A stretch of DNA of 64,000 nucleotides from Leucoraja ocellata (Eukaryota): assembly GCA_036785375.1 (NCBI GenBank), contig JAWMAR010000105.1, positions 6,448,001-6,512,000 of the forward strand. Reading direction: 5' to 3'. The translations under genes were made by a program, and so were the position numbers. The notes beneath the pieces were generated by a model. It had not been told where the DNA came from. It saw only the letters and a program-made list of their open reading frames with translations, and ran no database searches. Positions 1,651-63,216 of the stretch are shown in pieces; the first letter of the stretch is position 1, and every line of letters begins with the position of its first letter.

Positions 1651-1738
1651 AAGCTGGAGATGGTGCAACTCAGTGGGTCAGACAGCATCTTTGGAGAAAA
1701 GTTAATATGTGGCGTTTTGGATCGAGACCCTTCTTCAG
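1651..1738 (-). mobile_element. PLE terminal-repeat element with degenerate hammerhead core
   Basis: aactcagtgggtcagacagcatctttggagaaaag...gcgttttggatcgagacccttcttcag is homologous to the family at 22907-23125. Confidence 0.75.
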
Positions 1739-2489
1739 TGAAAGCTGGGTTCATATCTGGGTGATGAAGTTTGAGTCTTACGTGCTTCTTCTTGGAAGAA
1801 CAAGCAGATAAGGTTGAAGATGCTGTTTCTGGGACTCATGTCGGTGTTGCAGCCTAAATTAGTTTGGTTTGTGGATTGTTTTACACTGGGTTGGTACAGG
1901 TCAGAGACACCTAGTATGGTCAAGGTCTACTTTCTGAACCATGCCTTCCAGGCATTGGTTCTTTTTGTACACATTAGCAGGGGTCTACTACTACTGCTAC
2001 TACTATGTCAATGTTCTATATCTCCAAACTGCCTCAACTAAAATCTCACCCATATTCATGTTACTTCTGGACAATATCAAAAATCGACCCTTTATATCCA
2101 AACTAGTGCCAAGTTCTGTGTTTCCCAAACCCCTACAAACCAGATTACCCCCCCCCCCCCCCCCCCTTAACTCCAGTCACCTGGTAAAATCCCACCCTTG
2201 CATTTAGATCTTTCCATAGCTCCATCAGTTTACATTCTCCACCCTGCAAGGCACAGACAAATATGCATCTCTGGTTCTAGCTTTCTGGTTGTCTTTGCTT
2301 CGCCACAAGAAGCCAGTCATGAATTTATGTCTTCTACCCACCCTTAAGCACCCGGCCTCTCCACCCCTCCTCCTGAAAAGCGCTTCTTCTAGTCCTCTCA
2401 CCACAACCAGGCATTTGATTATATGTCCAATGTCTTCTGTCAAGCATTTTTGGAGATATTTTATCCCGTTTTCCGTGGGCTGTTTTGTG

Positions 2490-3200
2490 GCGTTTGATGC
2501 CGGTGTCCGTGCCATCACCGTCCACGTTTGATTTGTTGGGCTCTTGGCTCCATGTGTTATGACGGGCCCTGTGTGTGCTGAGCTGGGTCAGTGCGCGCAA
2601 GGGGTGCGTTTCACCGCCGCTCAGTTCTGCGTGGGACCAGAATTTAGCCCGGACTGTGCTCTCTGATCGGCCGGGATGAAAGGTGATAAACCCTGTCCTG
2701 TCGCTCCTGACCAAGAGCTCCATTCAGGGACTGTCCCGGCCCCCTGGATGGGGTTTTTAAGCTTGGAGCCAGACCAGTGGCAGGTTGGAGCCGGGGACCG
2801 AAGGGCGAGAGGCGGCGTGAGCTTGTGGAGACCGGTGGCGGCCGAGCGACTTTCAGCCGCTTTCGTTGGTGGACAGCGCCCAGGCAGATACGCCGAGCGG
2901 CTTCGGCAGCGCTCGGGCGAAGTCGGCGCCGCGGGAGGGAAGGAGAAGGCGGGGAGAAAGGCGGGGCTGAGCGGCCACGCAGCGGGCGGAGCTGCTCGAA
3001 TCCCCGCGGGTGCTCCGAGCCTGGCGTGCACTGGGTTAAAAGCCCGCAGCTCACCGTGCTGGCTCTGGGGAACGCTGTTAACAGCAGGAAGAGTGGCGAG
3101 GTGTGGTGCGGACATCAGCAGAGAGAACCATTCTTGTTTTCCTCACGACAATCCTGCCGAAATTGTCCCAATCTCCGCGCCGCCAAACAGCACAGAACAC
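2490..3200. promoter_or_regulatory. Intronic CpG island with GC boxes
   Basis: Abrupt GC- and CpG-rich, non-repetitive segment in a CpG-depleted background. GGCGGGG boxes near 2948 and 2960, GGGCGGA near 2984. Confidence 0.8.
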
Positions 3201-6200
3201 CCCGAGGCAATTAGGGAGTTGCACCTTTTCTTGTTGCCCCAGCCCTTGGCATGAGTGAGCTATGTACCACACAGGCATGAAGCATTGCCTACCAATGATA
3301 CAGTATCTTGCTGCCTACCGTTACAGAAAGGGTGCTGGATGCAAGGCTGTAACATGTTCACTTACACAGCACGCCTGTCGCTAAGACTGGTGTCACCAGT
3401 GAAATAAAACGAAGCTACTCTGCAGTTCAGAATTGAAATATATTTTACCGTGTGTGTAACCAGATCTTGCCACACGGTTGGAACCCGGCTATGCGTGTTC
3501 TGAGTTTGATATGATGTGGTCTTTGCAGTGTTTCAACCGATTTGAGGTCGAGTGTTGACTGACCCGTGGAAATTGTACAGAAGTTGAAGTCCATGCAAAT
3601 GATGCAAATACAATCACTTATCTCTCACAATAAATAATTTTCAAATATATTTACATTTTTTAAGTATTGCAGTACTGACCAATTGACACTACTGGCAATG
3701 GCACCAAACCTAATTGTTGTAGGTGGATTCTGGACCAGTTTGGTTTTAAAGGAAAGAGATGTCGAATGAAAAACATTGTCAGCATCTGAGAGTTTAATAG
3801 CTATGAAGGAAAATAACATTATTATTAATCATTTGTGAATTATGGAGAGAGATAATGAATACAAAATATTGAATTATTCACATATCTTTAGTTGGGCACG
3901 GAATGAGGGCAGGGACAAACAGTGGATACAGTCTCTTCGAAACTTTCCACTGACATACTCTGTATGATGTGAACAACAACATTTAGACATTTGAGATGCC
4001 CCTGGTGATATTATGCAAGAAACGCAAATGTTCAATGGATTTCTGAGCACGGTTGCTTATTTGCATTGTGATGTACCTAGGGACATATCGAGCTATTGGC
4101 AGATATGTGCCATAAACAATATTTGAGTCACAGCTGGTGGCAAATTGGCTTTGGACAATTAGGTAATTCATAGTACAGACCAACATCTGAACATGCAATG
4201 TCACTGGGTGGAAGTTCGTGTTTATTAAATAGTTCTGCTTGGATTGATTAAGCGAAAGATTGAGAAAGTTGTTCTAAAATTGTTCATTGCTGGAATTCAC
4301 AATTGAGCTGCACACAATTCCAAAAGCCCTTTCCATCTTGGAGAACATTCAGAAATGTTAATCGATGTATGATACTTTGGTTGAAAGCATAATCATTTTT
4401 GGATACATCACAGAAACAGTCACGTATAACGAGTGTTAGAGCACCAAGTCTTGCCACAAGATGATCTGCAATAATGTGCAGAAAACTCACATTGAATCAA
4501 ATTTATTTTGTTTTGGTTTTATTTTAGAACTCCCAATAGTACCACTGTTAGGTCCCTGATCTTTGCAATTCAAGATGATTAAATACCGTTATAATGAACT
4601 TTTTGCACCTGATCCTGTGTAATCAGTTATTGTGGAGGGTGACAAGTGGGGCGAGGGGGTCCAAAAATAGCCTCTACCCACTGCTTAAATAACTAAGTCC
4701 AAAATAAATCTTTACATTGCATGGAATGTCACAATTCTATTTGCAATTAACTGGAAGTGTATTGTTGAGTAAAATTGAACTTCTTTGGGTTCTTAGTGGG
4801 AGAGTCTTTATATACCGGCAGAAATATTTTCGCATTTCGCAGCTAACAAAATGACTGTGTCATAGAGCAGCTGCTAAAGTCCAATTGTGTTCATTTGAAA
4901 TGGCACGTAATCCATTTAATGTTTAGGTCGTAGCTCCTACAGCCCATGTACTGCTCGTGAAATGCTGTAAAGTATAACACCTTGATGGCAGGTATTTTTC
5001 ATATCATTCACTCATTACTGACATAATTACATTTTGTATCCATCATAAACAGCGATTTATGAAGTTTGTGAAGTCATTTGGTCAGCTGCTGCTGACCTCC
5101 ACTCCTCCCCGTACCTACCCACATCTTGTTTTTAAACAAAGATACAATAAAAGGAATTGGGAGCTTCCAAGTGCTTAAATGGTTTCATGTAGAATATTAA
5201 GGAATCCCAAGCCGCTCAGCTGAAACTCATTAATGGTGTAATATTTTTCAGTGCATAATTGGTGAATGCACACTAAGAAAAAGTGCGAGTTGCACAAGAG
5301 AATTGGGGTTTGGAATATTCTCTTCAAAGCTTGAAACTTTCCAACTAAATTAATTTTTCCCACCTTGAAATTTTACCAATTATTAAAACTTCTAAGAATT
5401 TCAGGAATATTTTTATTCATAGACGAAGGAGATTTAGAGATCACCGTGTTTTAACATAAAAAGTGTCAAGATTCGGAATCCTATACAGTGAAACAAAAAA
5501 AAATAACACTTTAATTTCTGGTTTTCCCAGGACTGAGTCATGTGGTTAAACGTTAAATTGTTTAGGATGAGAGCTATTTGTTTGTTGACGGGACAGAGCA
5601 TTACTAAATAAACTTACAATTCTGTACCTGGGGATGGTGTTAGATTACAGAGAAACCTAAAAGGGGATACCTGAAAAAAAGGTCTATAGATCTCTTGCAA
5701 TGTGCTTATTAGTTGGTGCAAGTTCACAACACAGATTATCCACCGTTTTTATTCATTTGTAATTGTAATAAAGGATATGGATGGCTAAGTAAAAAAACGT
5801 ACATCTCAATATTGGTGCAATGACTTTCTTTTCAAGGATGAACCTAAGGCTAATTGAAACAATAGTCAGGGAGTGATTTTCTTTAGGAGCTTAATGGGGC
5901 AATGTGGATAAAGCTTTATTTTTGTATCTTCTCACTGAGATATCCACGAGGGATTGATAAATTGGTTTCTCGGGCTGGGAAGTCTACATTTTGGGGGAAT
6001 GTTTTCACAATAAGGAGTGAGATGAGGAAGCATTTCTTTAAAATGAAGGGTTGCATATATTTGAAAATCTCTACTTCAGGGGGCCACTGATGCTTAGTCA
6101 TAGCACCATGTTTCTTTAGTGCTATTGGAGATGCTTTGTTCCAGTCAAGTAGAGAGTTTTCCGTCGCAATCCTGGTTTGTGCTGTGGAAATGGAATAATT

Positions 6201-7560: not shown

Positions 7561-9439
7561 AGGATGGATAGAATTGGAATTACAGACAGGCATTTATAGT
7601 GCATGAGAAAGAGAAGCAAAGGGAACATCAACTCACAATGGGGGAAGAAAGGAGAGTCGAATGATGAGAGAATTCGTGGAAAAGTAGATAGAGATTACAA
7701 ATGATAGAAGCTGAGGGGTGAATAGATGATTATACTGCAAGGGGAGACTTGTGGAGGAGAGGTACAGTAAAACTCTAATACAAGGGACCTCTGCATTATA
7801 GGAGGAACTGTATTCATAGTATTGGTCCATTTAACAAATTTCCATAAGGCAAAGTTGTGTCATCTACAAATGCGTCAGGAGCACAAGATGAAAAAATGCA
7901 TTTTAATTTCAATCATTTATTTTTTCTCACATGGATACTGTAAGGATGATTTTCACTTGCACGAACAGTGGTAACGTGGAGGTCACCTATAATTTGGTAT
8001 CCAGTTGCTCAGATTTCCTGATGATTTGACTCGCATATCAGACCAAAGTGTGATCTTGTGGTTGGGAACGCGAGCGTGCTGTGTACCTGGGTCTGGGTCT
8101 TTTGACTTTTGACTGGAACCAGAAATGGGTCTGGAATATGAGAGGTCGGGAACATTTGTTGGTTTATGGTCAGAACCAGGATCTGGAGTGTTTGTATATA
8201 TGCTGCTTCCTTTAAACTCATTGCATTCACTGGAAAATGTATTGTACTGATATGGAATATAAAAAGAGAGTGAAATGGAAATCTATATTGGTATTAATAG
8301 AATTTAATATCCAATAGTCTGATAAAACAGTCAAGTCAAAGAGGTGCCAGATTCTCATAATTTTACTGTAAATTGTAGCAGTAACTACATAGATGGTTCT
8401 AAGTTTGAAAAAGTGAAAGGCGATGAGACCAAGACACTCCACCTCACCCTCACCACCCCTTGTCTGCGTATTCCTTTACACATTTTGGGAACTGAGCAAA
8501 TGTTGTAATCAAATAAAACCCAGTATATTTACATGTCATCTCTCTCTATGATGATGAAACATCTGAACAGGTACCCTAATAATAGATTGAGGTTACAAAA
8601 CAACAAAAATACAGAGAATTCTTAGAGTACACAACTTATAATTGTTCTGCTATTTTTATTTCATATCTTGTGCCTGGTTGAATTGATTTGACCACATTCA
8701 TTTCACATGGGAAGAAAATCATAAAGCCTATTTAATTGAATGTCCAGTTGTAAATTCTATCCCAAATGAGTTATTTGTTTCAAAATGTAGGGAGAGGATC
8801 ACCTCTGGTGTTTCAAACTATGATATACGAAATCTGTCAGAACAAAAATCTGGAATTTGCATTGCCACATAATTCTCTGCTATGCAAGATACCCCATCTC
8901 CCTCTGAATTGAGTGCTGTCCCAGTTAGCCTCTCCTTTGGAACCAGGTTTTAACATAATTTTCCATACTTTTCAAATTCCAAACAGCTGCTCTTCCTTTT
9001 AAAAGAAACTTAATAATTTAATCTGTAAACCAATGCAAAGGAACTGGAAGTTTGTCAGTGATCGCCTCAGTGGGGTCATGTAACCTCATGTTTTGATTTG
9101 ATAACATAACTGGACAAATAGACTACAATATGATAGTCTATTAGCTGATTGTGGTATTTAGAAGTATTGATTAAATTATATTCCATAGAAACTGATATAT
9201 TACTGTAACTGCTTGTTTTAGACTGTTCTAAAGACCAATCTACCTGCACCCCTCCCTTTGGCCTCTTACATTGGCATTGACTATTCCATTTTTTTCCAAA
9301 CAAAGGAATTTTTTTCCTTTTGAAGTTGCAATACACTGCCCACTGAGAACCCACACAAACATTATTGTTAAACCAGCTGACAAGGGTGCTGCTATTATTT
9401 TGTTGAACTGACTTCTGCCTCAGCGAGGTTGAAAGCCAG

Positions 9440-10760
9440 ATCTCAGACATTCCCTCGTGCCTCCCTCTGGACCATGTCAGGACATTGTCTCTTAATCACT
9501 GCCCACATTTCCTCACATATCATCTCTCCATAGCTTCCAGCATCATAGTCTCCCAACGCCGCGCAACCTGCTTCTACCTTTCTCCCTATAGCCCACAAGT
9601 AGGAGTAACCTTGGAGTCATAATTTCTTCTCTGGTGGAACCTATTTCCATTTGTGACATTTCTGATGACCTCTGCCTCGTTGAGTTTCCAGTATCCTGGT
9701 CCCAACAGGCTCATTTTCACCATGGGCATCCCATCCCTGAACACCTCCACTTTATTGCAGAACAAAGACCCTGACCAAACCCCCTCACCATCACACTGCT
9801 TCATGTGGCTGCTCATTCTCACACTAAACAACTGCTCCATTTTTTTAAACTGCAAGTCAAGGGTGCAGATATGAAATCCTGCAGAGGCCAATATGTCTGT
9901 ATTGTTGTGGGAGGCTTTGGAAACTTCTTGGTTCAGACTGATTTGGCCTCCTCCCTCTCTTCTTTCCCACCACTTTTTTTGATTGTTTTGGTGATGCTTG
10001 GCAACCTTGTACAGAATTTAAACACATTGTTGCTGCCAGTTTCACCCCACTCTCATTTTGATATGATTTTCCTCTACTCTTTCTCAATTTATTTCCTCAA
10101 TCTCAGCAGACAGGTTAGCAATCAATATCCATCACAGACTCCCACAGCTGTCCTGGACACACCTTCTCCCATTCTACAAGCATTCCATTCTCCCAGTTCC
10201 TCTGGCTCCATTGCACATGTATGGATAAGGCAACATTTTTTAACCATGCCTTTTTCATCTTTCATTGTTGACAGGACTTCAACTGCATCTAATTCATTTC
10301 TTGCTGTTTTGCACTAACCTACTCCACCCCCCCCCCCTCCCACTGTAAGGATAAGGTTCCCCTGAAATTTGCCTTCCATTCCACCAACTTCCACTTCCTC
10401 TGTAATTTCCACCACCTTCTACATGATGCCACCACCAGGCACAACTTTTCCTCGTCTCTTATCTCAATGTTCGAACTGGCTCCTTGGTTCTGCTTTAACA
10501 ACCTCAGAAGTTCTAACTGCAGTTTCCCATGAAACAGTAGGAGATGCAACACCTTCCCTTTTGCCATTTTCTTTGCTCTGTCCAGGGAGTCCTGAAACAT
10601 CTTCCCTGTGAATCAGTGATTTCCACTCCAGTGAACTTCATCTGGAACTTGCAAAATGGTCTCTTCTATATCGGAGAGAAATCTAATGCAGATTGGGTCA
10701 ACACTTTTCAAAGAACTCCCCTTCAGTCTGCAAGAGGGTTCCTCAGCTTTCAGATGCCTG
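9440..10760 (+). mobile_element. Decayed Penelope-like retroelement (RT plus GIY-YIG remnants)
   Basis: Frame-shifted peptides appear in PLE order: FYLSP (FYLLPK-like), QYPGPNRLIFTMGIPSLNTS (FTMDVxSLYTS-like), LILTLNNCS, LQVKGADM (QxxGxAMG-like), DKVPLKFAFHST, GLFYIGEK (YIG). Confidence 0.8.
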
Positions 10761-11324
10761 TTTCTGAGTGGAATATTTTTAGGTCAGTCAACTGCACTAA
10801 CCAGCCTGTTGTGAGACGAGATCGAGGATTGATGTGAAATCTCGCTTTAAGAATGCCTAATGTGACCTGTAAAAATGATGTGTTGTCATAGAAAGACTCT
10901 TTGACTGCAGTTAGCATTAATTAGTGGGGCAGAACTGGGTGCTCTACATTTCATCCTATTCATACCATGGCTGATTTGGGAGCACTTAGGACAGCAATGC
11001 AAGGTTTATTCCTCGGGCCTGCCGTCTATCATCTCTTGAGCAGAGAAATAAACATGAAATTTGAGAGGATTTGATTGGGTGACTAGCGTAAACCTGTTTA
11101 TGCAAGATAACTCGGGTTTGGACATTCTTCACAAGTCCGCCTTGTTTCCACCACTGGCATTGATCCATCTTGTGGAGGTATTGATTGAAGTTTGGCCAAT
11201 CCCCATAAGAAATAGTTCGAATGTGAAAGCATTACTGTGCCACATTGTGTGGTTGGCAAAAGTTGAAACTTTTATCAACTGAAAACGCTGTTGGTTCCGT
11301 TGATACATGTCAGTGGTATCATCT

Positions 11325-13265: not shown

Positions 13266-14300
13266 TAGAGTCATACAGTGATACAGCATGGAAACAGGCC
13301 CTTCGGCCCAACTCGCCCACACTGGCCAACAATGTCCCAGCTACACTAGTCCAACTTGCATGCACTTGGTCCATATCCCTCCAAACCGGTGCTATCCATG
13401 TACCTGTCTAACTGTTTCTTAAACGATGGGATAGTCCCAGCCTCAACTACCTCCTCTGGCAGCTTGTTCCATACACCCACCACCCTTTGTGTGAAAAAGT
13501 TACCTCTCGGATTCCTATTAAATCTTTTCCCCCTCACCTTGAACCTATGTCCTCTGGTCCTCGATTCCCCAACTCTGGGCAAGAGACTCTGTGCATCTAC
13601 CAGATCTAATCCTCGCATGATTTTGTCCACCTCTATAAGATCACCCCTCATCCTCCTGCTCTCTATGAAATAGAGACCCAGCCTACTCGACCTCTCCCTA
13701 TAGCTCACACCCTCTAGTCCTGACAACGTCCTCATTAATCTTTTCAGAACCCTTTCAAGCTTGACAATATCTTTCTTATAACATGGTGCCCAGAACTGAA
13801 CACAATATTCTAGATGCGGTCGCGCCAACGTCTAATACAACTGTAACATGACCTCCCAAGTTCTATACTCAATAGTACACAAAAATTCTGGAGAAACTCA
13901 GCGGGTGCAGCAGCATCTATGGAGCAAATGAAATAGGCAACGTTTCGGGCCGAAACCCTTCTTCAGCAGTCTGAAGAATACTCAATACTCTGACTGATGA
14001 AGGCCAAAGTCCCAAAGGCCTTTTTTACCACCTTATCTACCTGCGACTCAGCCTTCAAGGAACCATGCACCTGTACTCCTAGATCCCTCTGCTCTACAAC
14101 ACTATCCAGAGGCCTACCATTTACTATGTAGGTCCTGTCCTTGTTCGACGTCCCAAAATGCAACACTTCACACTTCTCTGTATTAAATTCCATCAACCAT
14201 TCCTCTGCTAATCTGGCCAATCGATCCAAATCCGCCTGAAATCTTTCACAACCATCTTCACTATCTGGAAAACCACTAACTTTTGTATCATCAGCAATAT
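13266..14300 (-). mobile_element. Relatively young CR1/HER1-type LINE (RT C-terminal part and 3' UTR) with a nested PLE-repeat insertion
   Basis: ORFs 13963-14313 (ADDTK...FNTEKCEVLHFG...RDLGV) and 13346-13828 (RPHLEYCVQFWAP...LERV...TRGH...FFTQRVV.VWN.LP). The 3' tail shares gggccgaagggcctgtttcc with the SINEs. Confidence 0.95.
13875..13977 (-). mobile_element. PLE terminal-repeat element with intact minimal hammerhead core and 10-bp TSD
   Basis: TSD atactcaata at 13865-13874 and 13978-13987. The minus strand reads CUGAAGA-A-GGGU-UUCG-GCCC-GAAA-C-GUU. Confidence 0.85.
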
Positions 14301-14560
14301 TTGGAAATGTCACAAATTGTGATACAGTTTAAGTAATTCTTTTTAAATCTAAATATATCAAGCTGATTAACACATGGGATGATATGAGTGCTTCTGCACT
14401 AATTTCTTGAGGTTGCAGTAAGGAATATGCTCCAGTAAATGAGAGCTATCGATCACCAGCAAGACTAGTATTTATGGCCCATCCTTGTGGTCCTTAACAG
14501 TCTGGATCAAGCAGTGATCAGTTAAAGGTCATAAGCTGACTGGTCCAATAAGGTGAGCCT

Positions 14561-14847
14561 AGGGTGGCACAGCGGTAGAGCTGCTGCCTTAGAGCCAGAG
14601 ACCCAGGTTCGATCAATGACCACGGTGCTGTCTGTACGGTGTTTGTATGTTCTCCCTATGACTATGTGGGTTTTCCCCGGGTGCTCTGGTTTCTTCCCAC
14701 ATTCCAAAGACGTGCAGGTTTGTAGGTTAATTGGCTTCATTAAGCTGTAAAATTGTCCCTAGTAATATTAGTGTAGATGGTGATCGCTGATCAGCGTGGG
14801 CCCAGTGGCCGAGGGCCTGTTTTCGTGCTGTATCTTTAAAGTCTAAA
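14561..14847 (+). mobile_element. HE1-like SINE
   Basis: A-box-like gtggcacagcggtag, B-box-like ggttcgatc, core ggtttcttcccacattccaaagacgtgcagg, CR1-type tail. Confidence 0.9.
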
Positions 14848-15509: not shown

Positions 15510-15650
15510 GTCTGATGAAGGATGCTGGACCTGAAACATTATCAGGTTATCTCTTGATACATTATCTCTAGTTTGTCTCTCCACGGATGCTGCCTGACCT
15601 GTTGAAGAGTTTCCAGCATTTTCTGTTTATGTTTCAGAGTTCCAGTTTTT
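15510..15650 (+). mobile_element. Older PLE terminal-repeat subfamily copy
   Basis: tctgatgaagg...cctgaaacatt core followed by ccacggatgctgcctgacctgttg...tttccagcattttctg. Confidence 0.7.
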
Positions 15651-17334
15651 GTGTTAAAAAATAAAAAATTCTAATTGATTTGCGATTGGTGAGCATTGTA
15701 TTGATTGTTGTGGGGACATTTGTGTAACTTGACTGTTGTGTTTATTTCTTCCTATTTGTGCTTTGAGGCTTCTTAAGAATATAGGGCTAAGAGAATAGGT
15801 CAGATGAATATGTGGCTAAAGGGAAGGCATGTGAGGAAGAGCTTTAGATTTCTTGGGAAGATGAGACGGGTTGCACGAGAACTAGACAAAGTAAAATATT
15901 CCCAAGGAGGTTCGGAAAGATTTAAACTAATTGGGCCTGGAAATGGGACACAGAGGAGATGTGCATTTGGATGAATAATGCAGTTAAATATAGGAGGAAA
16001 AATTAGACCAGTAGTCAGACATGAGCAAAAGACATATTGGAGGAATACATGGCAAAATTATAACTGTTTTAACGCAAGAAGTCTGATTAGTAAAGCAGAT
16101 TAACAGACCATTGATCAGCGCATAGGAATGTGATATAATTGTGATCATATAGACATAGTTGAAAGAAAGACAGGACTGGCAACTCAACGTTGCAAGATAC
16201 ACAGTCTTCAGGTGCAATGGGCGGTGAGGGGAGATTCAAAAGAGGAAATAGCATTGCAGTATTGACTATGGAGACCAACACTGCAGTAGTAATGGACAAG
16301 CTTTTCAAAATGAGACCATGTGGTTAGAGTTTGCACACAGAAAGGAGGCAATCGCCTTGCTTGGGGTGTATTACAGACCTCCTAACAGTCCGCAGGAGAT
16401 TGAGGAGCAGGAATGTAGACAGCATCCAGGGAAAGTTGTCACATTGGATTCAAAATTGGCTTAGTGTTAGGGAGTAGAGGGTGATGGTGGAGGGTTTTTG
16501 ACACGATTGGAAGGCTGGTGTACCACCGACATGGATTCTTACTGTTTCCTACATATATTAGTGATTTGGATAGGAAATATAGTAGGTATGATCGGTAAGT
16601 TTGCAGATGGCATGAAAATTGGTGCTGTTGTTCATAGTGAGAACTATATTTGTAGGTGCAGGATGATGCTGATTAGTTGATAAAATTATGAGACATTTCA
16701 TGATGGGTAGAGCAATGCAGGTGGAATGTAATCTTGATAAATGCATGGGAGGACTAATACAGATAGGCCATACACAATGAATGGTGTGGGCTTAAAGGGT
16801 ATTGAGAAACAGAGTGTCCTGAGTGTACAAGTCCACAAAACCTCAAAGTTGGCAGATAAGGTGGTATAGATGCTTGGACATAGAATATAGGAGTGGGGTA
16901 TTAAAATTAAAATATTGGTTAAGCCACAGGTAGACTACCATGTATGGTTCTGGTTGCTACACTACAGGAAAGATGCTCCCTGGTCCGCTGAGTTCCAGCG
17001 GTGTATTTTATTGCGACAGGAAAGGCAAGATTGCACTGGAGAGTGCAGAGCAGATGCATCAGATGCACCCTAGCACAGAGCATTTCCTTTATGAGGAGGG
17101 ACTGGAGTTTCTGGGATTGTTTTCCTTGGGTGGAGGAGACTGAGATGGGTCCTGATTGAGGAATATAAAATGATGAGGGATGGGATGTGCAATAAAAAAC
17201 CTTTCCCCTTGGCAGAGATATCTAAAACTAGAAGACGTGGGTTGAATGTAACGGGTAATATGTTTCAAGGTGATCTGAGGAAGAACGTTCTCACCCAGAG
17301 GAGTAGTTGGATTCTGGAACACATTGCCTGTTAA

Positions 17335-17525: not shown

Positions 17526-17839
17526 GGGCAGCACTGTGGCGCAGCAGTAGAGTTGCTGCCTTCAGCTCCAGAGACCCGGGTTCAATCCTGACTACCGATG
17601 CTGTCTGTATGGAGTTTGTACGTTCTCCCCATGACCTGTGAGAGGGTTTTCCGGCTGCTCTAGTTTCCTCCCACACTTCAAAGACATCCAGGTTTGTAGG
17701 CTAATTGGCTTGGTAAACTTGTAAATTGTCCCTTGTGTGTAGGATAGTGTTAGTGTGTTGGGATCACTGGTTGGTGTGGACTCGGTGGGCCGAAGGGCCT
17801 GTTTCCACGCTATATCTCTAAACTAAACTAAACTAAACT
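17526..17839 (+). mobile_element. Full-length HE1-like SINE
   Basis: gtggcgcagcagtag A-box, ggttcaatcc B-box, conserved core and (ctaaa)4 tail. Confidence 0.95.
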
Positions 17840-18789
17840 CAGAAGGCTATGGACCAAATGCTGGTAAATGGAATTAGTATACAAAGCACTTGATAGATGA
17901 CATAAACATGGTGAGCCAAAGAAACTGGTTCTGTGCTAAATGATTCTAAGAAAGGTGCTATATTAACGCAGTGTTATTTTCTTCCATGGATTTGGTTTTT
18001 GCTAATGATTTACTAATTGCTAATGAATGAGAGCCACTGAATCATTCAAAATGGGACGAGTTGGGAATGGGACGTGCCTGTTCACTTACCGGATTTAGGC
18101 AGTGCGCTGTTCATCTTTCTCTTCAGCTTGTGCCTTTCTGTTCTCACAGATCACAGTGATCAATTTTCTTGTCAGGCGAGGTTATAGCAGGTACATATCA
18201 GGCCGATCATGTAACAATGGAAGCCATGCGAGTTCTCCATTGAGAGACCAAATTGCCGGGCTCCATGGGAGTTCATGCCTTCACAGTCACTGATGATGGC
18301 CGTATTGATCTCATGCCAATAGAAAACATGCCAATTACAAGCTGAGAGAAACCATGCCCTTCCTGTGCCAAGAGACCAAACTGGTTCCTGCCGTGCGATG
18401 GCACTTTTCTATGCTAGGTATTCATGGGGTAAATCAACCACATATGTAGAAGAGCCATCACGACATATGCCTTGGAGACTCTGCCAACCATTGCCAGGCT
18501 TCTCGTAAATTGAAGTTGCATTAAGAGACCTTGCTCAGTCTATTCCTGGAGAGACCATCTGCTCTACTGCAGGAGCTGATGCACGTGCTCAAGTTATATA
18601 ATCTTTGCAAGTAACTGGCTCCTGTTACAAAACAGTCACACAGCTTGTCTGATTGCACAGTTGGTGAGAGTGGGATGAAAGTGAGCCATTGGTTTTAAGA
18701 TATCCCAAGGTCAGAGTGTCTGCACACATCTGACATATAGTGGCGTACTCTGAGCTATAGACAGAAAATTGTTGATCATTTACTCCTTG

Positions 18790-21212: not shown

Positions 21213-21384
21213 CTTCCAACAGTGTTGTCGCTCTATGATTATTGTGCTCACATCTCTTATTGGCTTCAGACCACTTAGCCTTCAGACTTAGAGTCAAGGA
21301 GCTGAGCTCTGGCTGACATTAATTATACCCCAATTTCTTGAGATCTTTGCTGCTCTGATAGGAACATGATATTGACTTGATCCG

Positions 21385-21482
21385 CCATCCATCCATGTTC
21401 TCCAGAGATGCGGTCTGACCCGCTGAGATACACCAGCATTTTGAGTCTTTTTTTTAAACTGGCTTTTACAGTTCCCTGATTC
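21385..21482 (+). mobile_element. PLE terminal-repeat fragment lacking the ribozyme core
   Basis: atccatgttctccagagatgcggtctgacccgctgagatacaccagcattttg...cagttcc. Confidence 0.7.
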
Positions 21483-22277: not shown

Positions 22278-22474
22278 GTTACACAAAAAAGCTGGAGAAA
22301 CTCAGCGGGTGCAGCAGCATCTATGGAGCGAAGGCAATAGGCAACGTTTCGGGCCGAAACCCTTCTTCAGACGGAGTGTTTCCTTCGCTCCATAGATGCT
22401 GCTGCACCCGCTGAGTTTCTCCAGCTTTTTTGTGTAACCTTCGATTCTCCAGCATCTGCAGTTCCCTCTTAAAC
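22278..22474. mobile_element. Palindromic PLE terminal-repeat element with 15-bp TSD
   Basis: TSD aagggaaagttgatg at 22263-22277 and 22475-22489. Perfect 58-bp inverted arms at 22277-22334 and 22382-22439, with a hammerhead core in the spacer (minus strand). Confidence 0.9.
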
Positions 22475-22906: not shown

Positions 22907-23125
22907 TATAAGAAAGAACTGCGGATGCTGAAAAAATCGAAGGTAGACAACAAATGCTGGAGAAACTCAGTGGGTGAGGCAGCATCTATGGAGAGAAGGA
23001 ATTGGCGACGTTTCGGGTCGAGACCCTTCTTCAGACTGAAGAAGGATCTCGACCCGAGACGTTGCCAATTCCTTCTCTCCATAGATGCTGCCTCACTCGC
23101 TGAGTTTCTCCAGCATCGTTTGTCT
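22907..23125. mobile_element. Palindromic PLE terminal-repeat element with two back-to-back hammerhead cores
   Basis: TSD attt(g/a)ggaactggatatg at 22889-22906 and 23126-23143. Palindrome centred on 23035 (ttcttcag-a-ctgaagaa) with arms of about 90 bp. Confidence 0.9.
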
Positions 23126-25310: not shown

Positions 25311-25441
25311 AATTCTTCCAGTCGTATCATTTCTGAAGGTTATTTTTGGTGGATTTTAATCCTGGTTCTGAATCTCTATAAATGTTGAGTATTCGTTGCT
25401 AATAAGACCCAATAAAGTACACCATCAGAAACTCGAACCAT

Positions 25442-39199: not shown

Positions 39200-39390
39200 T
39201 GTGGGAACAAGGAACTGCAGATTTGCTGGTTTGCTGGAGTAACTCTGGAGAACATGGATAGGTAACATTTCAGGTCAGGATCTGAAGTCTGAGGAGCGGT
39301 CCCAACCCAAAATGTCACCAGAGGTGATGCCTGTTCTCCAGACTTTCTGCCTGACACGCTGAATCATTCCAGCATTTTTTGTCTTTTGTT
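39200..39390. mobile_element. Degraded inverted pair of PLE terminal repeats
   Basis: ggaactgcagatttgctgg...ggataggtaacatttcaggtc, then gtctgaggagcggtcccaacccaaaatgtcacc...ccagcattttttgtc. Confidence 0.7.
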
Positions 39391-43878: not shown

Positions 43879-43885
43879 TTGACCC

Positions 43886-44167
43886 AGTGATGCAGCAGTA
43901 GAGTTGCTGCCTTACATCGCCAGAGACCCTGGTTCGATCCTGACTACAGGTGCTGTCTGTATGGAGTTTGTATGTTCTCCGCTAACTGTGTGGGTTTTCT
44001 CCGGGTGCTCCGGTTTCCTTCCACATTCCAAAGATGTGCAAGTTTGTAGGTTAATTGGCTTATGTAAATTGTCCCCAAGGTGTAGTGTAAGATAGAACCG
44101 GTGATCATTGGTAGGCGTGGACTTGATGGGTTAAAGGGCCTATTTCCACGCTGTTTCTCTGAACTAA
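43886..44167 (+). mobile_element. HE1-like SINE, head-to-head with the previous copy
   Basis: gtgatgcagcagtagag head, ggttcgatcc, core and tail. Confidence 0.9.
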
Positions 44168-45394
44168 TCTGCATTACGGCACAGAGGGAATGCTCAACAA
44201 GTCAGGGTACGGTACAAATTTGTGCTGGTGTTCAAATTTTGGAGGAGGATGTTGGCATAAGGATCTCATTCAGATTTACAAGGGAACCAATCTTAACTGT
44301 GACAGGGTAACATTTACTGCAAATCAATATTTTATACACAGCTATAAAACTAATGGCAACCATATGCATGGGATGCAGGGCTCTGAACTGAAGTTTGTTG
44401 ACTGGAATGATACTATGATCAGTACTGTATTATTGTAGCAAAGGCAAAACTGATGGGGAGGTGGCAAGTGAATTCCAATTCTGAAACAGTAGATGCAACA
44501 TGGCTTATTTGCTTTATCTTGTTTTGGAACCTTGAAAGATACAGAGAGAGAGGTTAAGTCTCAAATGGCATCTGCATCTCAGATCAATAGGAAATATGTC
44601 CAGTGTTTAAAAATGCATACACTTTCCTTAGTGTTGTGTCTCACTGATCTATTGCATGCAATTACAACTACATGAGAATCCTCAGTCTAAATGCAATCTC
44701 TGCTGTTGGAACTACAGTATGTACTAATTCTAATTCTAGGTGACATATTAAATGTTAATTTAATTGCACAATTGGCCGCTTTATATAGCAAAATCAGATT
44801 GCATTGAGATGAAACTGTTTTTGTAATTTCTCTCGGCTGTCAAAACTTTCAGTGGCAAGAGAGTAGTCCTGTACTAATATTAATTCCCAGGAATTTTGGA
44901 ACCATTGTCCACAGAGTGCATGAAGGTTACATCGTGATGGACAGAAGGTCTAATGTGGAACGGTATAGTTACAATCGAATAATTACCATCAGGCCTTATT
45001 ATTGTTTATGTATGTGAACAAATATTTGTTTTGCTTTGCAAAAATTGAATGGGATGCAATGGAACAGTAACCATTTATTTTGACTAATTTAATCTTGCAA
45101 CTAAGACGTAATAAGTCATGTTAGCTAAAAGACCTTTTGTGCAAGTAGAATAAATTGGTTCCACTGTCTGCATTTATAGATCAACATAGTGCAAAGTCAC
45201 AAGGAGCTACCAAAAAACATATTGCTTGCTCGCAAACTCTGCTCCAGCTTAGGATCGCTAACACTAAAACGTCAAATGATAAAACTTATTTAAGGCACTC
45301 TTAGTTAATGCATTACCAAATAATAATACTCTTAATTATGGTCCTCATCTATTCAATTACTAATCTTAAATACCTACAATGAAAACTACAAGGT

Positions 45395-46480: not shown

Positions 46481-46905
46481 TGTTCATGAACTACTACCCT
46501 CAACCTCACCACTGGGCTCAAGTTCAGGCAGCTCTGATTTGAGCAACACATGAGCTCAATGTATTGCAGTTTCTTTCAAATGTTGCTGTTTATTGAGGGG
46601 AAAGACATGAAGTTGTGTTTTCCAGATGTCAATTCAGGGTTTTAAAGCGTAACCTACTGCAGTCCTTCATATTGTTTAAATAGCTACGTGGAGCATAAAG
46701 TAAAACAGGCAGTATAGACACATTGACTAATCAGATTTGACAGATCTGCAGAGTTGGAGATTTCAGCCCTTCATTCACCATTAATATTGTAAACAGCAAT
46801 ATTCCAACAGTGTAACTGGAGGAGGGAGTCGGGTTACCCAGACAGAAAAGATAGTTCCCAGGAATGAGAAAGGATCCGAAAGATGCATTAGAGGAGGATC
46901 TCGAT

Positions 46906-47038
46906 CCGTCTGAAGAAGGGTCTCAAACCAAAACATCACCTATTCCTTTTCTCCAGAGATACTGCCTGAGCCGCTGTGTTACTCCAGCATTTTGTATCTA
47001 CCTTTGGTGTATACCACAATCTGCAGTTCCTTCCTGCA
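46906..47038 (+). mobile_element. PLE terminal-repeat element with degenerate core
   Basis: gtctgaagaagggtctcaaaccaaaacatcacc...ctgcagttccttcctgca. Confidence 0.85.
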
Positions 47039-47734
47039 TCGGAAAATGCATTGCCAGGTTAAGAAATAAATGGATGGGTGGTTTGTTTGGAGGTAAATGA
47101 TAGTAGAGAGTATTTGGGCCAAGTGGTCAGGCATGATGGAGTGCACTTATGTTATTACCTGTAGTAAATTTGGAAATTCATTGAAAATAATAGATAAAAC
47201 AGAAAAATAATCTTGTTTGTTACATGCTTTCTGCACTCACCAGCTTCTTGCAGTCCTCCCACAATCTTTTCTGTCGGCAAAAACAGGCCTGTGTGGGGCA
47301 AACTGAGGCTGTTGCAAATGGTGTTTTTGCAAATGAGAGTCTGGCTAAAATGCTACGAGCAATGAAATGAATGACGTGAGAATATTTGTTCAGAAGCAGC
47401 CAGAATTTACAGCAGCAGTCAGACTACATTTGCTGGAGGCATGGCGAGGCGAGATTGTGGCTGTGGCAATGTGTTTCAGCAGTTGCTATTCTTGCAAACA
47501 AGCAAGCAGCAGAACCACTCCACGAACGGAGTGTATGATTAAGGGAAGACTAGCTTGCCCCTAGCCACCTGTACAGGACATTATAGTGAATCCAGCAAGT
47601 ATCACTATCCAGTAGCAATATGCCTCACCTTTCCAAGTACAGTATTTTAATATAATACCAGGAATCTGCACAATTTCAGCTTCCTCCCAGGAACACATAG
47701 CTGGCATATTCCTCCAGTTGCCTGATTGTGATTG

Positions 47735-48510
47735 TGAGTTCCCCTGGTCCTCATCTTTCACCCAACACCCTCTGCAGCCAACACATCTTTCTCTGACACT
47801 TCCGCCATCTTCAACAATTGACTTTTCAGCAGTCCCATCTTTCCAGACCCCTTTCTACATGTTTTGGTTTGCTTATCCCTTCCCACCAAACCAGCCCTTG
47901 CACTGGCACTTTCCTCTGCAACTGCAGGAGATGCAATTCCTGCCCCTTCAACCCCAATTTAACATCCATCCAGGGACCCCAGCAGCTCTTTCAGGTGAAA
48001 TAGAGATACGAGTGCACCTCTTCCAACCTCATCTATTGCTGTTGGTGCTCCCGATGTGGCCTCCTTTACATCAGCAAGACCAAGCATAGACTAGGTGACC
48101 ATGTCAACCTTTCTGTTCTAGGCCTCCTCCATTGCCAGAGTAAGGCTGCACATAAATTGGAAGAGCAGCACCTTATATTCCACATGGGTAGCATACAACC
48201 CAAATATTTGAGAAATGCATTCTCCAAATAATCAGCTCCCATTTTCTCTCCCTTTCCCCTGTCCCCTCGCCCACCACAGTGCACACACATTTCTTCCAAC
48301 TTCTCCTCCCACTCTACTCACACTATCCCTTTCTCCTCCTCTACGTTCAACCATTTTCCAGCTTTCTCTCCCCAACTCCATCAGTCCGAAGAAAGGTTCC
48401 GTCCCGAAACGGCCCCTGTCCACTCCTTCCACATGTGCTGCCTGACCCACTGAGTTCTTCCAGCGCTTTGTGTTTTGCTCAGGATTCCAGCACCTGCAAC
48501 TTCTTGCGAC
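47735..48510 (+). mobile_element. 3' part of a Penelope-like element: Cys linker, GIY-YIG endonuclease remnant, 3' UTR and hammerhead-type terminal repeat
   Basis: GTFLCNCRRCNSCPF...IQGPQQLFQVK*RYECTSSNLIYCCWCSRCGLLYISKTKHRLGD (GIY-YIG-like), a pyrimidine-rich UTR, then cagtccgaagaaaggttccgtcccgaaacg...gctgcctgacccactgagttcttccagc (48382-48500). Confidence 0.88.
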
Positions 48511-49321
48511 TCCTGCTTGTGATTGGTGGTATCTGATTCTATTCTATTGAAGGCTGCTGACTCTTCTTTCCTCCGCCATCTCCATTATTTATTGAAGTGA
48601 CTGAACAGCAGGTTTTGTTACACCGTCCAATGTCTTTGGGTGTGCCACATATTGAACAAAGGTACATGGAGTTCCCTTCGGCTCAGTGCATGGCAGTGGA
48701 GATGACAGTTCTCTGTGCACTGAGTTGACAGTCAGTAGAGAACAAACATCTAGTCGAAACAAAACACCTTCATCTCCACTTCCCTCCTTATGCCCATACC
48801 CTACCCCAGCTTCTGTCATTTTCCTTCAATGTATTTGAGAGTCTGGCAACAACAAATTGGATTTCTGCAGCTTCTTTGACATAATATTTTACTGGAGCAG
48901 ATTGAACAAAAATTGCTACCTAGCTTTTTCACCAATAGCCTGCCTGTGCTAAAAGGTATCTTTGATGCCAAAGCAAGCAGAATATGATCTGCTAGATACA
49001 GGTCAGTGCAAGAGGTTGGCTGCATCACTTACATCCAATCACGGATGAAAGAAGCCAAGCAAACCTTTGTATTCAATCCGCCCTGAAGATTTCTTGACAC
49101 CTGTGGGCCCCGCCCATGATTTTTCTGGTTTGTGAGTTTATTTATTTTTGATTCCAAACTCAAGTCTATAGTTCTGCATCTTCTGCAGTCTTGGGAAGGT
49201 TATAGATTTGTGCAGCAGAGACATAGGCCCATCAGCCCACCATTTCCCTATCAACCATGCATATACCGATCATACCAGTTCCATTTACCTGCATGCAGTC
49301 TGTCAAGGTTTATCAATATTC

Positions 49322-49424
49322 AGTCTGAAGAAGGGTCCCGACCTGAGACCTCACATATCCATGTTCTTCAGGGATGCTGCCTGACCCGCTGAGTTATACC
49401 AGCACTTTGTGTCATTTAAAAAAA
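49322..49424 (+). mobile_element. PLE terminal-repeat element with 10-bp TSD
   Basis: TSD atcaatattc at 49312-49321 and 49425-49434. Core CUGAAGAAGGGUCCCGACCUGAGAC is degenerate. Confidence 0.85.
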
Positions 49425-50338: not shown

Positions 50339-50472
50339 GTGTAGGAAGGAACTGCAGATGCTGTTTTAAACCGAGGATGGGCACAAAATGCTGGAGTAAC
50401 TCAGCGGGACAGGCAGCATCTCTGGAGAGAAGGAATGCGTGGCGTTTCGGGTCGAGACCCTTCTTCAGACTG
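50339..50472 (-). mobile_element. Solo PLE terminal-repeat element with 9-bp TSD, nested in an older SINE (~50235-50640)
   Basis: TSD agacataca at 50330-50338 and 50473-50481. The host SINE reads ...cccatatcccaaagacataca|...ggttaattggccactgtaaatt. Confidence 0.9.
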
Positions 50473-50837: not shown

Positions 50838-50980
50838 GATGCAAATCAAAATACTGCAGATGCTGGAAATTTGAAATAAAAACAGAAAATGCCACAAACA
50901 ATCAGCAGAACAGAGGGCACCTGTTGAAGGGACTGTGACTGAAATGTTAACTGTTTCACTTTCCGCAGATTGTTACTTGA
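50838..50980 (-). mobile_element. Older PLE terminal-repeat subfamily copy
   Basis: aaaatactgcagatgctggaaatttgaaataaaaacagaaaatgc, with a short inverted remnant at ~50935-50980. Confidence 0.7.
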
Positions 50981-57603: not shown

Positions 57604-58379
57604 CATTCTCGTGGTTATCTAGTCCTCACTCCTGCGGCTGTGAAAACTGGTGTACATCATGCCTGCTTCCATGGTCAGAGGTTACACTCAACTGGCAGGG
57701 TCACCATATGATTTCCCCTTGAATCCCACTTTATAACTTCTCTTCCAAGCACTTGGCAAAGATACCAACCTGAAACATGCAGAGTCCTGGGTTTAAAAAT
57801 AATCTTGGCATCCGGCTCCGGCTCGGGTGAGGAATATACGGCATCTTTCCCACCAGGTTCGGTCAAGAGGGAAAGCGATCAGATTGGAAGAGGGCATTCC
57901 TTCTGAGTTCTCTGTGGAGCAAGGGGCGGGAATGTTTGCTCCTTCCATTCCCTGTCACTTGCCTCCCCATTCTAAACCGGAGTGCTGGTAGCAAAGGTCA
58001 CCTGAATGTACACTGCTCAACAACTGAAACCTTTAATTGCCCCGGTTAACACCTATCCGTTTGCCCAGTGGCCTGCTTCTCCAAGCCTGCCATATTGACA
58101 CAATCTGCTGGGTTTTGACTTTCTGCAATCTGAGAGTCTAAATGTCATGTTAATAGTTGCAGTCCTGGGCGGGGAGGGGGACAAGTAAACACTGCAAAGT
58201 TCGAGTTGCTGCAGACAGGGTGGCACTGCATAGTGTCTCATGTTACATTGATAAGGAAGTTTTACTGCTTTTTATATATGTAACATTATCTTAGGCAATG
58301 GACATATGGTGAGTGGGCCTGGACCAATCTAAATGTTGTTTAATGACTAAAAATGTTCACTGAGGGAGAAAGCTTCATT

Positions 58380-58530
58380 TGTGGGCCCCAGTCTCTGTGG
58401 GCTCAGGCTCTGTGGGCTCAGGCTCTGGGGAGAATAGGGCCCCAGGCTCTGTGGGGACTGTGGGCCCAGGCTGTGTGGGGAATAGGCCCCCAGACTCGGT
58501 GGGCCTGGGCTCTGTGAGTGCTCTCTGGGG
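58380..58530 (+). repeat. G-rich tandem repeat (15/24-bp units)
   Basis: Repeated gggcYcaggctctgt(gggg...) motif, about 7 copies. Confidence 0.8.
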
Positions 58531-59029
58531 ATCAGATGAACCTTTCTCAACCTGTGGAATGGTCTGCTCCAGTTCTTTTGATTGGATTAGTTTCAGATTG
58601 GGTTTTGATGGTCCTGTAAAGGTATGAAGGTAAACATGCTAATTAGAAGCATGACTGCTCTTTGATCCATATGTACAAATATGATTTAATAAAGTTCAGG
58701 GAAGTCTGTTGCCTGAGTTAATATTTGTCCCGTATTTTGACCTTTTGTCCCATATTTGGGAGTGAGAAAGTTGGTACCCAACAAAGAATGAATGGAAAGG
58801 TGTAATGGCCTTTGAACGCTGGACTTACAGAAACCATAGAAATGGTCGAGCTCCCACTCATAGGAGAGCTATGTTTAATTCACAGTGTGTGACCATGTAA
58901 GTCTATAAACACTCCTAAAATTGATCTTCAGAGGACAGGTTTGCTATCCTTTGTTTCCTCAGTGTCACTTTAATGATCAACAACTAGTCGTGCTTTAACT
59001 TTATCAAGCTTTAATGCTATAAATGTGTG

Positions 59030-59404: not shown

Positions 59405-59501
59405 CAGTCTGAAGAAGGGCCTCGATCCGAAACATCACCCATTCCTTCTATCCAGAGATGCTGCCTGTCCTGTTGTTACTCCAGCAATTTGTGTCTATCT
59501 T
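59405..59501 (+). mobile_element. PLE terminal-repeat element
   Basis: cagtCUGAAGAAGGGCCUCGAUCCGAAACAUCacccattcc...gtgtctatctt. Confidence 0.85.
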
Positions 59502-59685
59502 AGGAGCAAGTTTGTCTATCAGCCCCTCAAAGCTGCTCATTACTCAACCAGATCATGGATGGTCCAATATTGATGTCAATGTCATTCTTCCACCATTCTC
59601 TCAAGAGGCATGAGATTAAGGTGAAATAACCTCTGGTTCAATTAAACACGACAGCATTAAACACGACAAAAAAGTGTTGCAGCCA

Positions 59686-60052
59686 TTTAGAGTCGTCATA
59701 GAATGATACAGTGTAGAAACAGGCCGTTCGGCCCAGCTTGCCCACACCGGCCAACATGTCCCAGCTACACCAGTCCCACCTGCCTGTGCTTGGTCCATAT
59801 CTCTCCAAACTTGTCCTATCCTTGTACCCGTCTAACTGTTTCTTAAAAATTGGGATATACCCATCCTCAACTGCTTCCTCTGGCAGCTTGTTCCATACAC
59901 CCACCACCTTTTGTGTGAAAAAGTTACCCCTCAGATTCCTATTAAATCTTTTCCCCTTCACCTTGAACCAATGTCCTCTGGTCCTCCATTCCCCTACTCT
60001 GGGCATGAGATTCTGTGCATCTACCCGATCTATTCCTCTCATGATTTTATAT
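59686..60052 (-). mobile_element. CR1/HER1-type LINE 3' fragment, same subfamily as 13266-14300
   Basis: MRGIDRVDAQ...TRGHWFKVKGKRFNRNLRGNFFTQKVVGVWNKLP. Confidence 0.93.
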
Positions 60053-60421
60053 ATGGTTCTGCAAATAAGCAGTTTAGCAGCATCCAGTATCCAGGCCGAA
60101 CATTGTCAAAGTGTAGTCACAGTCATGATGCATGGAACTGAGTGGGTAGTCTCACCCAATGAGGCCCTGAAATTAAAAATCAATTTTATTGAGGTTGAAT
60201 GGAACTTTCTCCAATCTTCTGACAAAATCATAGGGATCCTTTATATTCTATGACTGTGAGTCTATTTTGCTTGAGAGGGGATATGGGGCCTCTGTTTAAC
60301 ACCGCATCTTTCATCCCTTGAATGCTGCATGGTGGAAAATATTGCTGATGGTTCTCCGTTTTCCCATGACATAAAGGAGGCCATTTGGTCTATCAGGTCT
60401 GATGGTATTTCTCCTCATCTT

Positions 60422-61260: not shown

Positions 61261-61271
61261 AAAGTTGTGAT

Positions 61272-61391
61272 GTGTAGGAAGGAACTGCGGATGCTGATTT
61301 ACACAGAAGATAGACACAATGCTAGAGTAACTCAGCGGGTCAGGCAGCATTTGTGGAGAAAAGGAATAGGTGATGTTTCGGGTCGAGACCC
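61272..61391 (-). mobile_element. PLE terminal-repeat element with 7-bp TSD, truncated within the core
   Basis: TSD ttgtgat at 61265-61271 and 61392-61398; gtgtaggaaggaactgc...gatgtttcgggtcgagaccc. Confidence 0.85.
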
Positions 61392-62459: not shown

Positions 62460-63028
62460 AGGGCCTGTCCCACCAGCATGCGATTGCATGCGTCTAGCGC
62501 GACCAAACGTGGTGGCTTAAGGCGTACGGCCTTGCGGGGCCGGTCTCACTTCCAACCACGGAGGATGGTCCCGACATCATACTCACCAATCAGCTGGGCA
62601 GTAGACGGGCCGACTGAATTTGGACGTTGCATGGCGTCGGGCGGTTACGTCATCACGCAACGGCACGCCGGGCGGTGATGTCATCGCGCAATGCCACGCG
62701 CTAGGCGTACGCCGTCAAGACGCTGCGTACGGCTTCAAGATGCTGCGTACGGCGTCAAGACACTGCGTACCGCGTTGAAACAGTGCGTACGCCCGTCGAG
62801 GAGCTGCGTATGGCCTCAATGCGGCTGCGGGCCGACAGGCCGTTGCCGCGCGGAATTTTTGGACAGTGTCAGTTTTTCGGAGCCCCGTGCGATGTCGGGA
62901 CCAGCCCCACACAACTCCATACGGCTCCGGCGATCGAAGTGGGACCGGCCCCGCGAGGCCGTACGGCTCAAGCGACCATGGTAGGTCGCGCTCGCCGCAT
63001 GCAGTCGCATGCTGGTGGGACAGGCCCT
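62460..63028. mobile_element. MITE (non-autonomous DNA transposon), probably PIF/Harbinger superfamily
   Basis: 33-bp TIRs AGGGCCTGTCCCACCAGCATGCGA(T/C)TGCATGCG at 62460-62492 and 62996-63028 (1 mismatch), extending imperfectly to about 90 bp. 3-bp TSD TAC at 62457-62459 and 63029-63031. No transposase ORF. Confidence 0.9.
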
Positions 63029-63109
63029 TACTCAGCAGCTAAGATGGCAACTATGGATCCAGAAGCAGGGTTAATGTTTGAGGCTGAAAACCCCTGGTCA
63101 GAATTTAAC

Positions 63110-63216
63110 CATTCTGATGAAGGGTCCTCAATCTTAAAGCTTAACTCTATTTCACTTTCCACAACTTATTTAACATTTCCAGCATTCTCTGTATTTACTT
63201 CATCTGCAGTGTTTTG
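63110..63216 (+). mobile_element. Old PLE terminal-repeat remnant
   Basis: ttctgatgaagggtc...ttaactctatttcactttccaca...tttccagcattctctg...catctgcagtgttttg. Confidence 0.6.

Follow-up and report, generated by a model that had tools for sequence, protein, structure and literature searches.

In a 64,000-nucleotide stretch of the Leucoraja ocellata genome (contig JAWMAR010000105.1, positions 6,448,001 to 6,512,000; hereafter the window, with positions counted from its first nucleotide), short repeats with a hammerhead ribozyme motif at one end occupy 22 insertion sites. On sequence evidence these repeats are the terminal repeat (pLTR) of a Penelope-like element (PLE), probably of the Neptune type, to judge from a linker motif in the accompanying protein. 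Their 5′ ends lie at a fixed boundary just before the hammerhead, which is not set by the ribozyme. The hammerhead motif class, its link to PLEs and the inverted and tailed anatomy of such inserts are already published, and the finding is mostly ordinary; the fixed boundary is a modest, testable addition to known PLE anatomy. Neither this boundary nor a paper on this PLE repeat family was found in the literature searched (repeat databases and supplements may already hold it).

The repeats and their parent element

A profile built from 18 copies (arms) in the window gave 29 matches at a cut-off of E≤0.5, and none in the reversed window that served as control. After one weak match had been dropped (33356-33380, E 0.37), 28 arms at 22 sites were retained, in line with a preliminary description of this DNA that had counted about 20 copies or fragments. 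That description had also distinguished at least three subfamilies, and several are indeed seen: two young copies are 91% identical, and older groups are 44-80% identical to the rest. As it had likewise claimed, many copies are bounded by target-site duplications (TSDs). Exact TSDs of 8-15 bp are present at 10 of the 22 sites (3 of 300 random pairs reach 8 bp), and TSDs of 10-11 bp with one mismatch at four more (control 8/300), leaving eight of the 22 with none above chance; the insert boundaries were read by eye, which makes the TSD odds optimistic. The window holds no paralogous empty site for the insert at 13875. Exact-pattern scans of metagenome and viral contigs gave no matches, and a protein-led metagenome scan brought up 47 stretches, none of which was confirmed.

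The identity of the parent element comes from the one site among the 22 that has an open reading frame (ORF) for a GIY-YIG endonuclease upstream of the repeat. At this site a decayed ORF end with CNCRRCNSC and IYCCWCSRCGLLYI is succeeded, without change of strand, first by a pyrimidine-rich tract of 150 nt and then by the copy at 48382-48516. The ORF remnant (47761-48228) matches GIY-YIG-bearing proteins (tblastn E 1e-28; protein search E 1.6e-25); Pfam gave no match to the decayed piece itself. ORF end, pyrimidine tract and repeat lie within one TSD (47735-48516), and the repeat is therefore read as the pLTR. Relatives of the remnant carry the reverse transcriptase (RT) motifs of PLEs together with a GIY-YIG domain, close ones being in whale shark, little skate and a stingray. 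All four of the full-length relatives checked (about 900 aa) have a CX2-5CxxC finger in the linker, of which CNCRRCNSC is the counterpart in the window. This linker marks Neptune and Nematis (PMC8557442); the finger does not separate the two.

The earlier view that a PLE mobilises the repeats is thus upheld by the finding of a pLTR behind a PLE ORF end. By the same token, the term 'non-coding element' fails for this one copy, which belongs to an ORF-bearing insert within a single TSD. Moreover, since a truncated copy that includes ORF sequence also has a TSD, a TSD alone is no proof of a non-autonomous unit, and the earlier argument from TSDs that the unit inserts by itself falls away.

Endonuclease-bearing (EN+) PLEs of the Neptune clade are alike in their RT-linker-GIY-YIG ORF, CX2-5CxxC finger and pLTR hammerhead, in their 5′ truncation, 5′-side inverted copy and 30-40 bp tail, often at one end, and in having TSDs of the 8-10 bp type (PMC8557442, PMC3846280). 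The window departs from them in that almost all its inserts are ORF-less stubs of 45-145 nt, or pairs of these, sharing one 5′ boundary, and in that it contains neither a full-length nor a partial-tandem element.

Two further observations concern related sequences. At 9271-10770 (+) there is a second, much older PLE ORF remnant, extending from a KPADKG RT motif to the start of the endonuclease but not followed by any recognisable pLTR; near 9930 a word resembling the hammerhead was set aside as RT-coding sequence of this remnant. One predicted protein (P0073) begins MLPDLLSFSS, like the frame that opens at the stub's own ATG, and continues as PLE RT sequence, which hints either at an RT with this pLTR in front of it in another genome or at a joining of gene models.

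Insert anatomy and the hammerhead

Head-to-head (inverted) pairs make up six of the 22 sites. The 3′ ends of the arms fall at two points about 35 nt apart, an interval that corresponds to the known PLE tail. In three clean pairs (22278, 22907 and 35294) the tail is on one arm only, and two of the six pairs are unreadable in this respect. By eye, short ends lie about 11 nt past the first CAGCA and long ends about 19 nt past the second, and both CAGCA repeats can pair with the same ATGCTG.

The 5′ ends are distributed quite differently from those expected of random truncation. Counting from C3 of CUGA, eight of the 28 arms stop in the body (+11 to +65), a rate of 0.006 per base. This rate predicts that 11% of the arms reaching the ribozyme (+10) should stop between -8 and +10; in fact 19 of 20 do so (P=1e-17, or 2e-6 at five times the body rate). 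Stops at -4/-3, reading (C)AGT, account for 8/20, including the 11-nt inverted piece of the 13875 insert, and just two of the 28 arms end within +24 to +31, around the cleavage site. In many arms the TSD abuts the boundary, so upstream sequence that had been missed does not explain the sharp 5′ end. Head-to-tail tandem units are absent among the 28 arms, the nearest approach being a 17-nt partial repeat at 46890. The unit therefore has a fixed 5′ end, but not one set by the ribozyme. What stands of the earlier idea of a ribozyme-bearing family on the scale of a short interspersed element (SINE) is the fixed size of the unit, given by this boundary and the two fixed 3′ ends; a separate non-autonomous family is not established.

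The hammerhead itself was well described at the outset. Three intact minus-strand cores, CUGAAGA-A-GGGU-(UUCG/CUCG)-(G/A)CCC-GAAA-C-GU(U/C), are present at 13938-13966, 22341-22372 and 23005-23036, as had been claimed, and in these three arms all the marks of a minimal type I hammerhead of the PLE kind are intact (CUGANGA, GAAA, NUH, an extra base after A9 and a palindromic helix III). Helix II pairs in 12-15 of 15 rows, with one-sided changes and no clean two-sided compensatory change. Helix I is of 2 bp, a third pair holding in 0/8. Once CpG columns and sister arms had been removed, core columns were kept in 114/119 cases (96%) against 626/732 (86%) for non-ribozyme columns (p=0.001), and against 372/422 for the 3′ body alone (p=0.015), the copies being related rather than independent. 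The core is thus better kept than the rest, as the preliminary description had proposed to check, and this sequence comparison suggests that it is under selection in the source lineages.

Metazoan PLE minimal type I hammerheads likewise lack a helix III loop, have palindromic 15.2-16.2 positions, an extra base after A9 and a G10.1-C11.1 pair, and occur mostly as single motifs with some opposite-strand pairs; those of Schistosoma have a helix II of 7-8 bp and a helix I of 4-5 bp, compared with 4 and 2 bp in the window, and a 2-bp helix I is found in Drosophila virilis (PMC4209133). The window hammerhead is a putative ribozyme, and modelling does not favour its fold. In five of five stubs folded (by a nearest-neighbour model that takes no account of protein or tertiary contacts), the probability of helix I was 0.0 and that of helix II at most 0.26, because the core's GAAGG is taken up in pairing with a CCUUC further downstream; forcing the hammerhead on a dimer cost 14-16 kcal/mol relative to the unconstrained dimer. 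The hammerhead fold is thus predicted in silico to be disfavoured. The hammerhead of Poseidon_Ac, when tested in vitro, cleaves only with protein (PMC11167929). An Rfam scan of the window found no hammerhead family at E≤5; its six matches at that threshold were all under the gathering score and were set aside as chance hairpins.

The preliminary description had also held that the plus-strand cores, which are sense to the host, all look mutated, perhaps by chance or through selection. This holds only when the count takes in the ACGU palindrome and helix II. Every catalytic core base is kept in plus arms 15510+, 29540+ and 59404+, what looks like a G5 mutation at 36069+ falls on the final base of the TSD there (a truncation), and the change from ACGT to ACAT is found on minus arms too (61270, 63030). 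Intact cores occur in three of six minus arms and in none of ten plus arms (p=0.036, leaving out 50921+, also mutated), a post hoc comparison in which every intact core belongs to one or other of the two youngest subfamilies; it does not support selection against sense cores. Sense single insertions outnumber antisense ones by 11 to 5 (p=0.21), which also speaks against such selection. Two of the three intact cores are in head-to-head inserts, which fold into long hairpins on either strand. A deficit of sense copies specific to particular subfamilies would still be compatible with these counts.

Possible origins of the stubs

How might stubs with a common 5′ boundary be generated? We tentatively favour, with a little less than even confidence, the idea that they are short cDNAs primed inside the front pLTR copy of the PLE mRNA and running off the 5′ end of the RNA. 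In Poseidon_Ac, a PLE of Anolis, the endonuclease nicks both strands and the RT extends both, starting internally at two sites that define the tail, and ribozyme cleavage is not required (PMC11167929). Window and Poseidon_Ac are alike in having two fixed 3′ ends that define a tail and insert ends away from the ribozyme cut site, and extension of both strands fits the inverted pairs; a fixed 5′ boundary of short genomic copies is not described in the parts of that paper examined (PMC11167929). PLE promoters with initiator (Inr)-like motifs have been located inside pLTRs (PMC3846280, PMC2377424). By analogy, the mRNA would start at the Inr-like TCAGT just before CUGA. Priming at the front copy would then yield a cDNA of 100-140 nt ending at the RNA 5′ end, priming at the downstream copy would yield ORF-bearing inserts such as 47735-48516, and the joining of two cDNAs from opposite nicks would give head-to-head pairs. 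Poseidon_Ac needs the first 172 nt of its ORF although its RT starts at 111-118 (PMC11167929), and therefore the full start signal, if Neptune is like Poseidon_Ac, would lie where pLTR and ORF meet at the mRNA front, and not in solo stubs. The hammerhead would be kept by selection in source elements and carried as a passenger in stub inserts. We infer the start at TCAGT, and all steps beyond the anatomy, by such analogies.

Several points tell against this idea. The boundary reads TCAGTCY, and the Inr consensus, YYANWYY, occurs by chance at 1.2% of window positions and here includes the CU of the ribozyme itself. The young subfamilies have no ORF-linked copy in the window, the sole such copy belonging to another subfamily that shares 53-72% identity with the stubs. 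Both arms of the pair at 39200-39403 may include tail sequence. The 5′ ends were read by eye, several of them having a few bases of microhomology to the TSD. Poseidon and Neptune are different clades, and the Poseidon_Ac ORF, in contrast to the arrangement in the window, starts inside the hammerhead (PMC11167929). In D. virilis, finally, a 75-nt intron has its end mapped to helix I and PLE transcription begins 46 nt upstream of that intron (PMC4209133, PMC2377424), and by analogy with that layout the CAG would be a splice acceptor rather than a start.

The last point leads to the alternative that the stubs are ordinary 5′-truncated copies from the 3′ pLTR, cut short by a strong RT stop at the pyrimidine tract and CAG before the hammerhead, for instance where splicing factors occupying a splice acceptor on unspliced RNA form a road-block that about one copy in 20 passes into the ORF. 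A pyrimidine tract closing with CAG does lie immediately before the core of the ORF-linked copy, helix I is where the D. virilis intron ends (PMC4209133, PMC2377424), PLEs keep introns (PMC8557442, PMC2377424), and solitary minimal hammerheads, including those on opposite strands, have already been attributed to truncated PLEs (PMC4209133). We nevertheless regard it as rather unlikely: the stop would have to act in about 95% of cases, the parts of the PLE papers examined report nothing of the kind, and no clear donor is visible by eye in 48232-48381, itself part of a decayed copy. A spliced-RNA template was rejected, as TSDs abut CAG directly at 50339 and 49321 and leave no room for a first exon. 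That the stubs are true non-autonomous masters with an internal RNA polymerase (Pol) II promoter and RT start sites, transcribed and remobilised in trans as a SINE-like family that depends on a PLE, which is how the preliminary description read them, we consider unlikely. The fixed unit ends and TSDs would suit such masters, as would the young subfamilies without an ORF-linked copy in the window, and pLTRs suffice for trans mobilisation in rotifers (PMC3846280); yet autonomous PLEs also make every structural mark, Poseidon_Ac needs RNA beyond the inserted end (PMC11167929), and a 64-kb window could not be expected to hold an ORF-linked copy for every subfamily. Within one clade five stubs have ACAT in common, perhaps as a source variant without the dimer palindrome, but ACAT is an ordinary product of CpG decay too. 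A tRNA-derived head was not found (no ARAGORN hit; no tRNA, 5S or 7SL match in Rfam), these being weak tests for a decayed head, and words like A and B boxes on the antisense strand were judged by eye to be due to chance. Similarly unlikely, in our view, is a Penelope-dependent SINE, whose unit of 100-140 nt would be tipped by a Pol II initiator and contain two internal sites for RT to start. If real, it would do without a Pol III head, poly(A) tail or ribozyme cleavage, its most abundant subfamily would already be without the dimer palindrome, and its density, about 22 sites per 64 kb, would make it one of the major repeat classes in cartilaginous fish.

Very improbable is a non-LTR retrozyme, in which dimeric hammerheads would cut tandem repeats into monomers or circles for reinsertion and the ribozyme would define the unit. 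Such elements resemble the stubs as short, non-coding, pLTR-related units with a type I hammerhead, occurring as dispersed monomers, and pLTR-derived retrozymes are reported in a chondrichthyan (PMC7229834; bioRxiv 10.64898/2026.07.22.740005); in the window, the core is conserved above background and the youngest copies have the ACGU palindrome. However, the defining features of retrozymes are repeats in head-to-tail order, hammerheads that are mostly canonical, and circular RNAs delimited by cleavage (same sources), whereas the 28 arms include no head-to-tail array, the ends lie before CUGA and not at the cut site, and the folding model gives the core so little support as a monomer or dimer. 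A circular template was rejected for the further reason that short-end copies lack the upstream tail that it would give. The SINE-like hammerhead retroposons of Schistosoma are also short, abundant and hammerhead-bearing; they consist of a promoter part followed by the hammerhead (PMC6765202), whereas in the window the hammerhead is the 5′ tip and no tRNA-like head was found.

The use of the stubs is that they record, in nature, a step of PLE integration that is still unsolved. The sharp boundary upstream of the ribozyme, with no pile-up of ends at the cut site, points to uncleaved RNA as the template in vivo, which matches the in vitro result for one Poseidon element. Internal initiation at the mRNA front is predicted to flood genomes with stubs and, if it does, would explain why most metazoan minimal hammerheads are solitary.

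Insertion sites and host setting

Table 1. Sites of pLTR-derived inserts in the window (a dot in the strand column marks pairs)
Position	Strand	Features
1658-1738	-	Single stub, changed core; 11-bp TSD with 1 mismatch
13875-13977	-	Young stub whose core (13938-13966) is intact; 3′ end short, 5′ piece of 11 nt inverted; 10-bp TSD; within LINE (long interspersed element) fragment
15510-15650	+	Stub of old subfamily; palindrome lost, catalytic bases retained
16973-17015	+	3′ stub without hammerhead; 9-bp TSD
21383-21475	+	Stub with tail, truncated near hammerhead end
22278-22474	.	Minus (core intact, short-ended) and plus (truncated, tailed) arms joined head to head; 15-bp TSD
22907-23130	.	Minus (core intact, tailed) and plus (two changes in core, short-ended) arms joined head to head at CAG-N-CTG; 13-bp TSD
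29540-29683	+	Stub with tail; catalytic bases retained, ACAT for ACGT; 8-bp exact TSD
34353-34436	-	Young stub starting at helix II, short end
35294-35400	.	Head-to-head 3′ stubs without hammerhead; tail on plus arm; 12-bp TSD
36072-36193	+	Stub with tail, starting inside CUGA; 10-bp TSD
36815-36912	+	3′ stub of old subfamily, with tail
39200-39403	.	Older head-to-head pair; minus-arm tail clear, plus-arm tail possibly partial; no significant TSD
40361-40413	+	3′ stub, decayed
46890-47042	+	Stub with tail and 17-nt partial tandem of its own 5′ end; 10-bp TSD with 1 mismatch
47735-48231	+	Decayed 3′ end of Neptune-type PLE ORF (linker, CxxC finger, GIY-YIG-like endonuclease); frameshifts, stops
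48232-48381	+	150-nt pyrimidine-rich stretch from ORF stop to hammerhead; ends TCAGT, presumably Inr-like or splice-acceptor-like
48382-48516	+	pLTR end: decayed hammerhead and tail
47735-48516		Whole insert; 9-bp exact TSD (14 bp with 1 mismatch)
49322-49424	+	Stub from (C)AGT, short end; 10-bp TSD
50339-50472	-	Full stub, CAGT to tail; U16.1 changed; 9-bp TSD
50845-50975	.	Head-to-head pair, old, decayed
59405-59500	+	Stub from CAGT, short end; ACAT, catalytic bases retained
61275-61391	-	Stub with tail, from helix II; ACAT; 10-bp TSD with 1 mismatch
63030-63216	.	Old head-to-head pair; minus arm cut by later inverted-end element

At the start of the window, a 43-nt coding exon with strong splice sites (82-124, +) encodes GAGESGKSTIVKQMK and matches G-protein alpha chains of the Gi/o/t family. 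A motif scan of the window revealed no following G-alpha exon, and the window is therefore most likely one long intron of which the plus strand is the host sense strand, as had been supposed at the outset. The gene may be GNAO1, which has a large second intron. About 2.5 kb into the intron lies a GC-box-rich stretch resembling a CpG island (2600-3250), possibly a regulatory element or alternative promoter. On the strand opposite to the G-alpha gene, 58378-58611 (-) holds an ORF like a terminal exon, with a good acceptor and rich in P/T/E repeats, which may belong to a nested gene; a homologue search with ORF 58381-58611 gave none, and a Pfam scan of 17 candidate exons gave nothing useful.

Other repeats share the intron. 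At 29339-29760 (-) a coding-like stretch of unknown origin, without a Pfam match, is interrupted by stub 29540. A second abundant short repeat, headed by a tRNA-like sequence, is present in at least ten copies on both strands (14555-14751, 17558-17844, 32399-32719, 43880-44185 and others); it resembles the HE1 SINE of sharks. LINE 3′ fragments, which we presume to be CR1/L2-like, lie at 13332-14328, 24799-25339, 36254-36699 and 59638-60105, the young stub at 13875 being nested in one of them. Finally, we draw attention to a GC-rich element at 62460-63028, similar to miniature inverted-repeat transposable elements and apparently young, with inverted ends of 104 nt (86% complementary), which cuts the 63030 arm.

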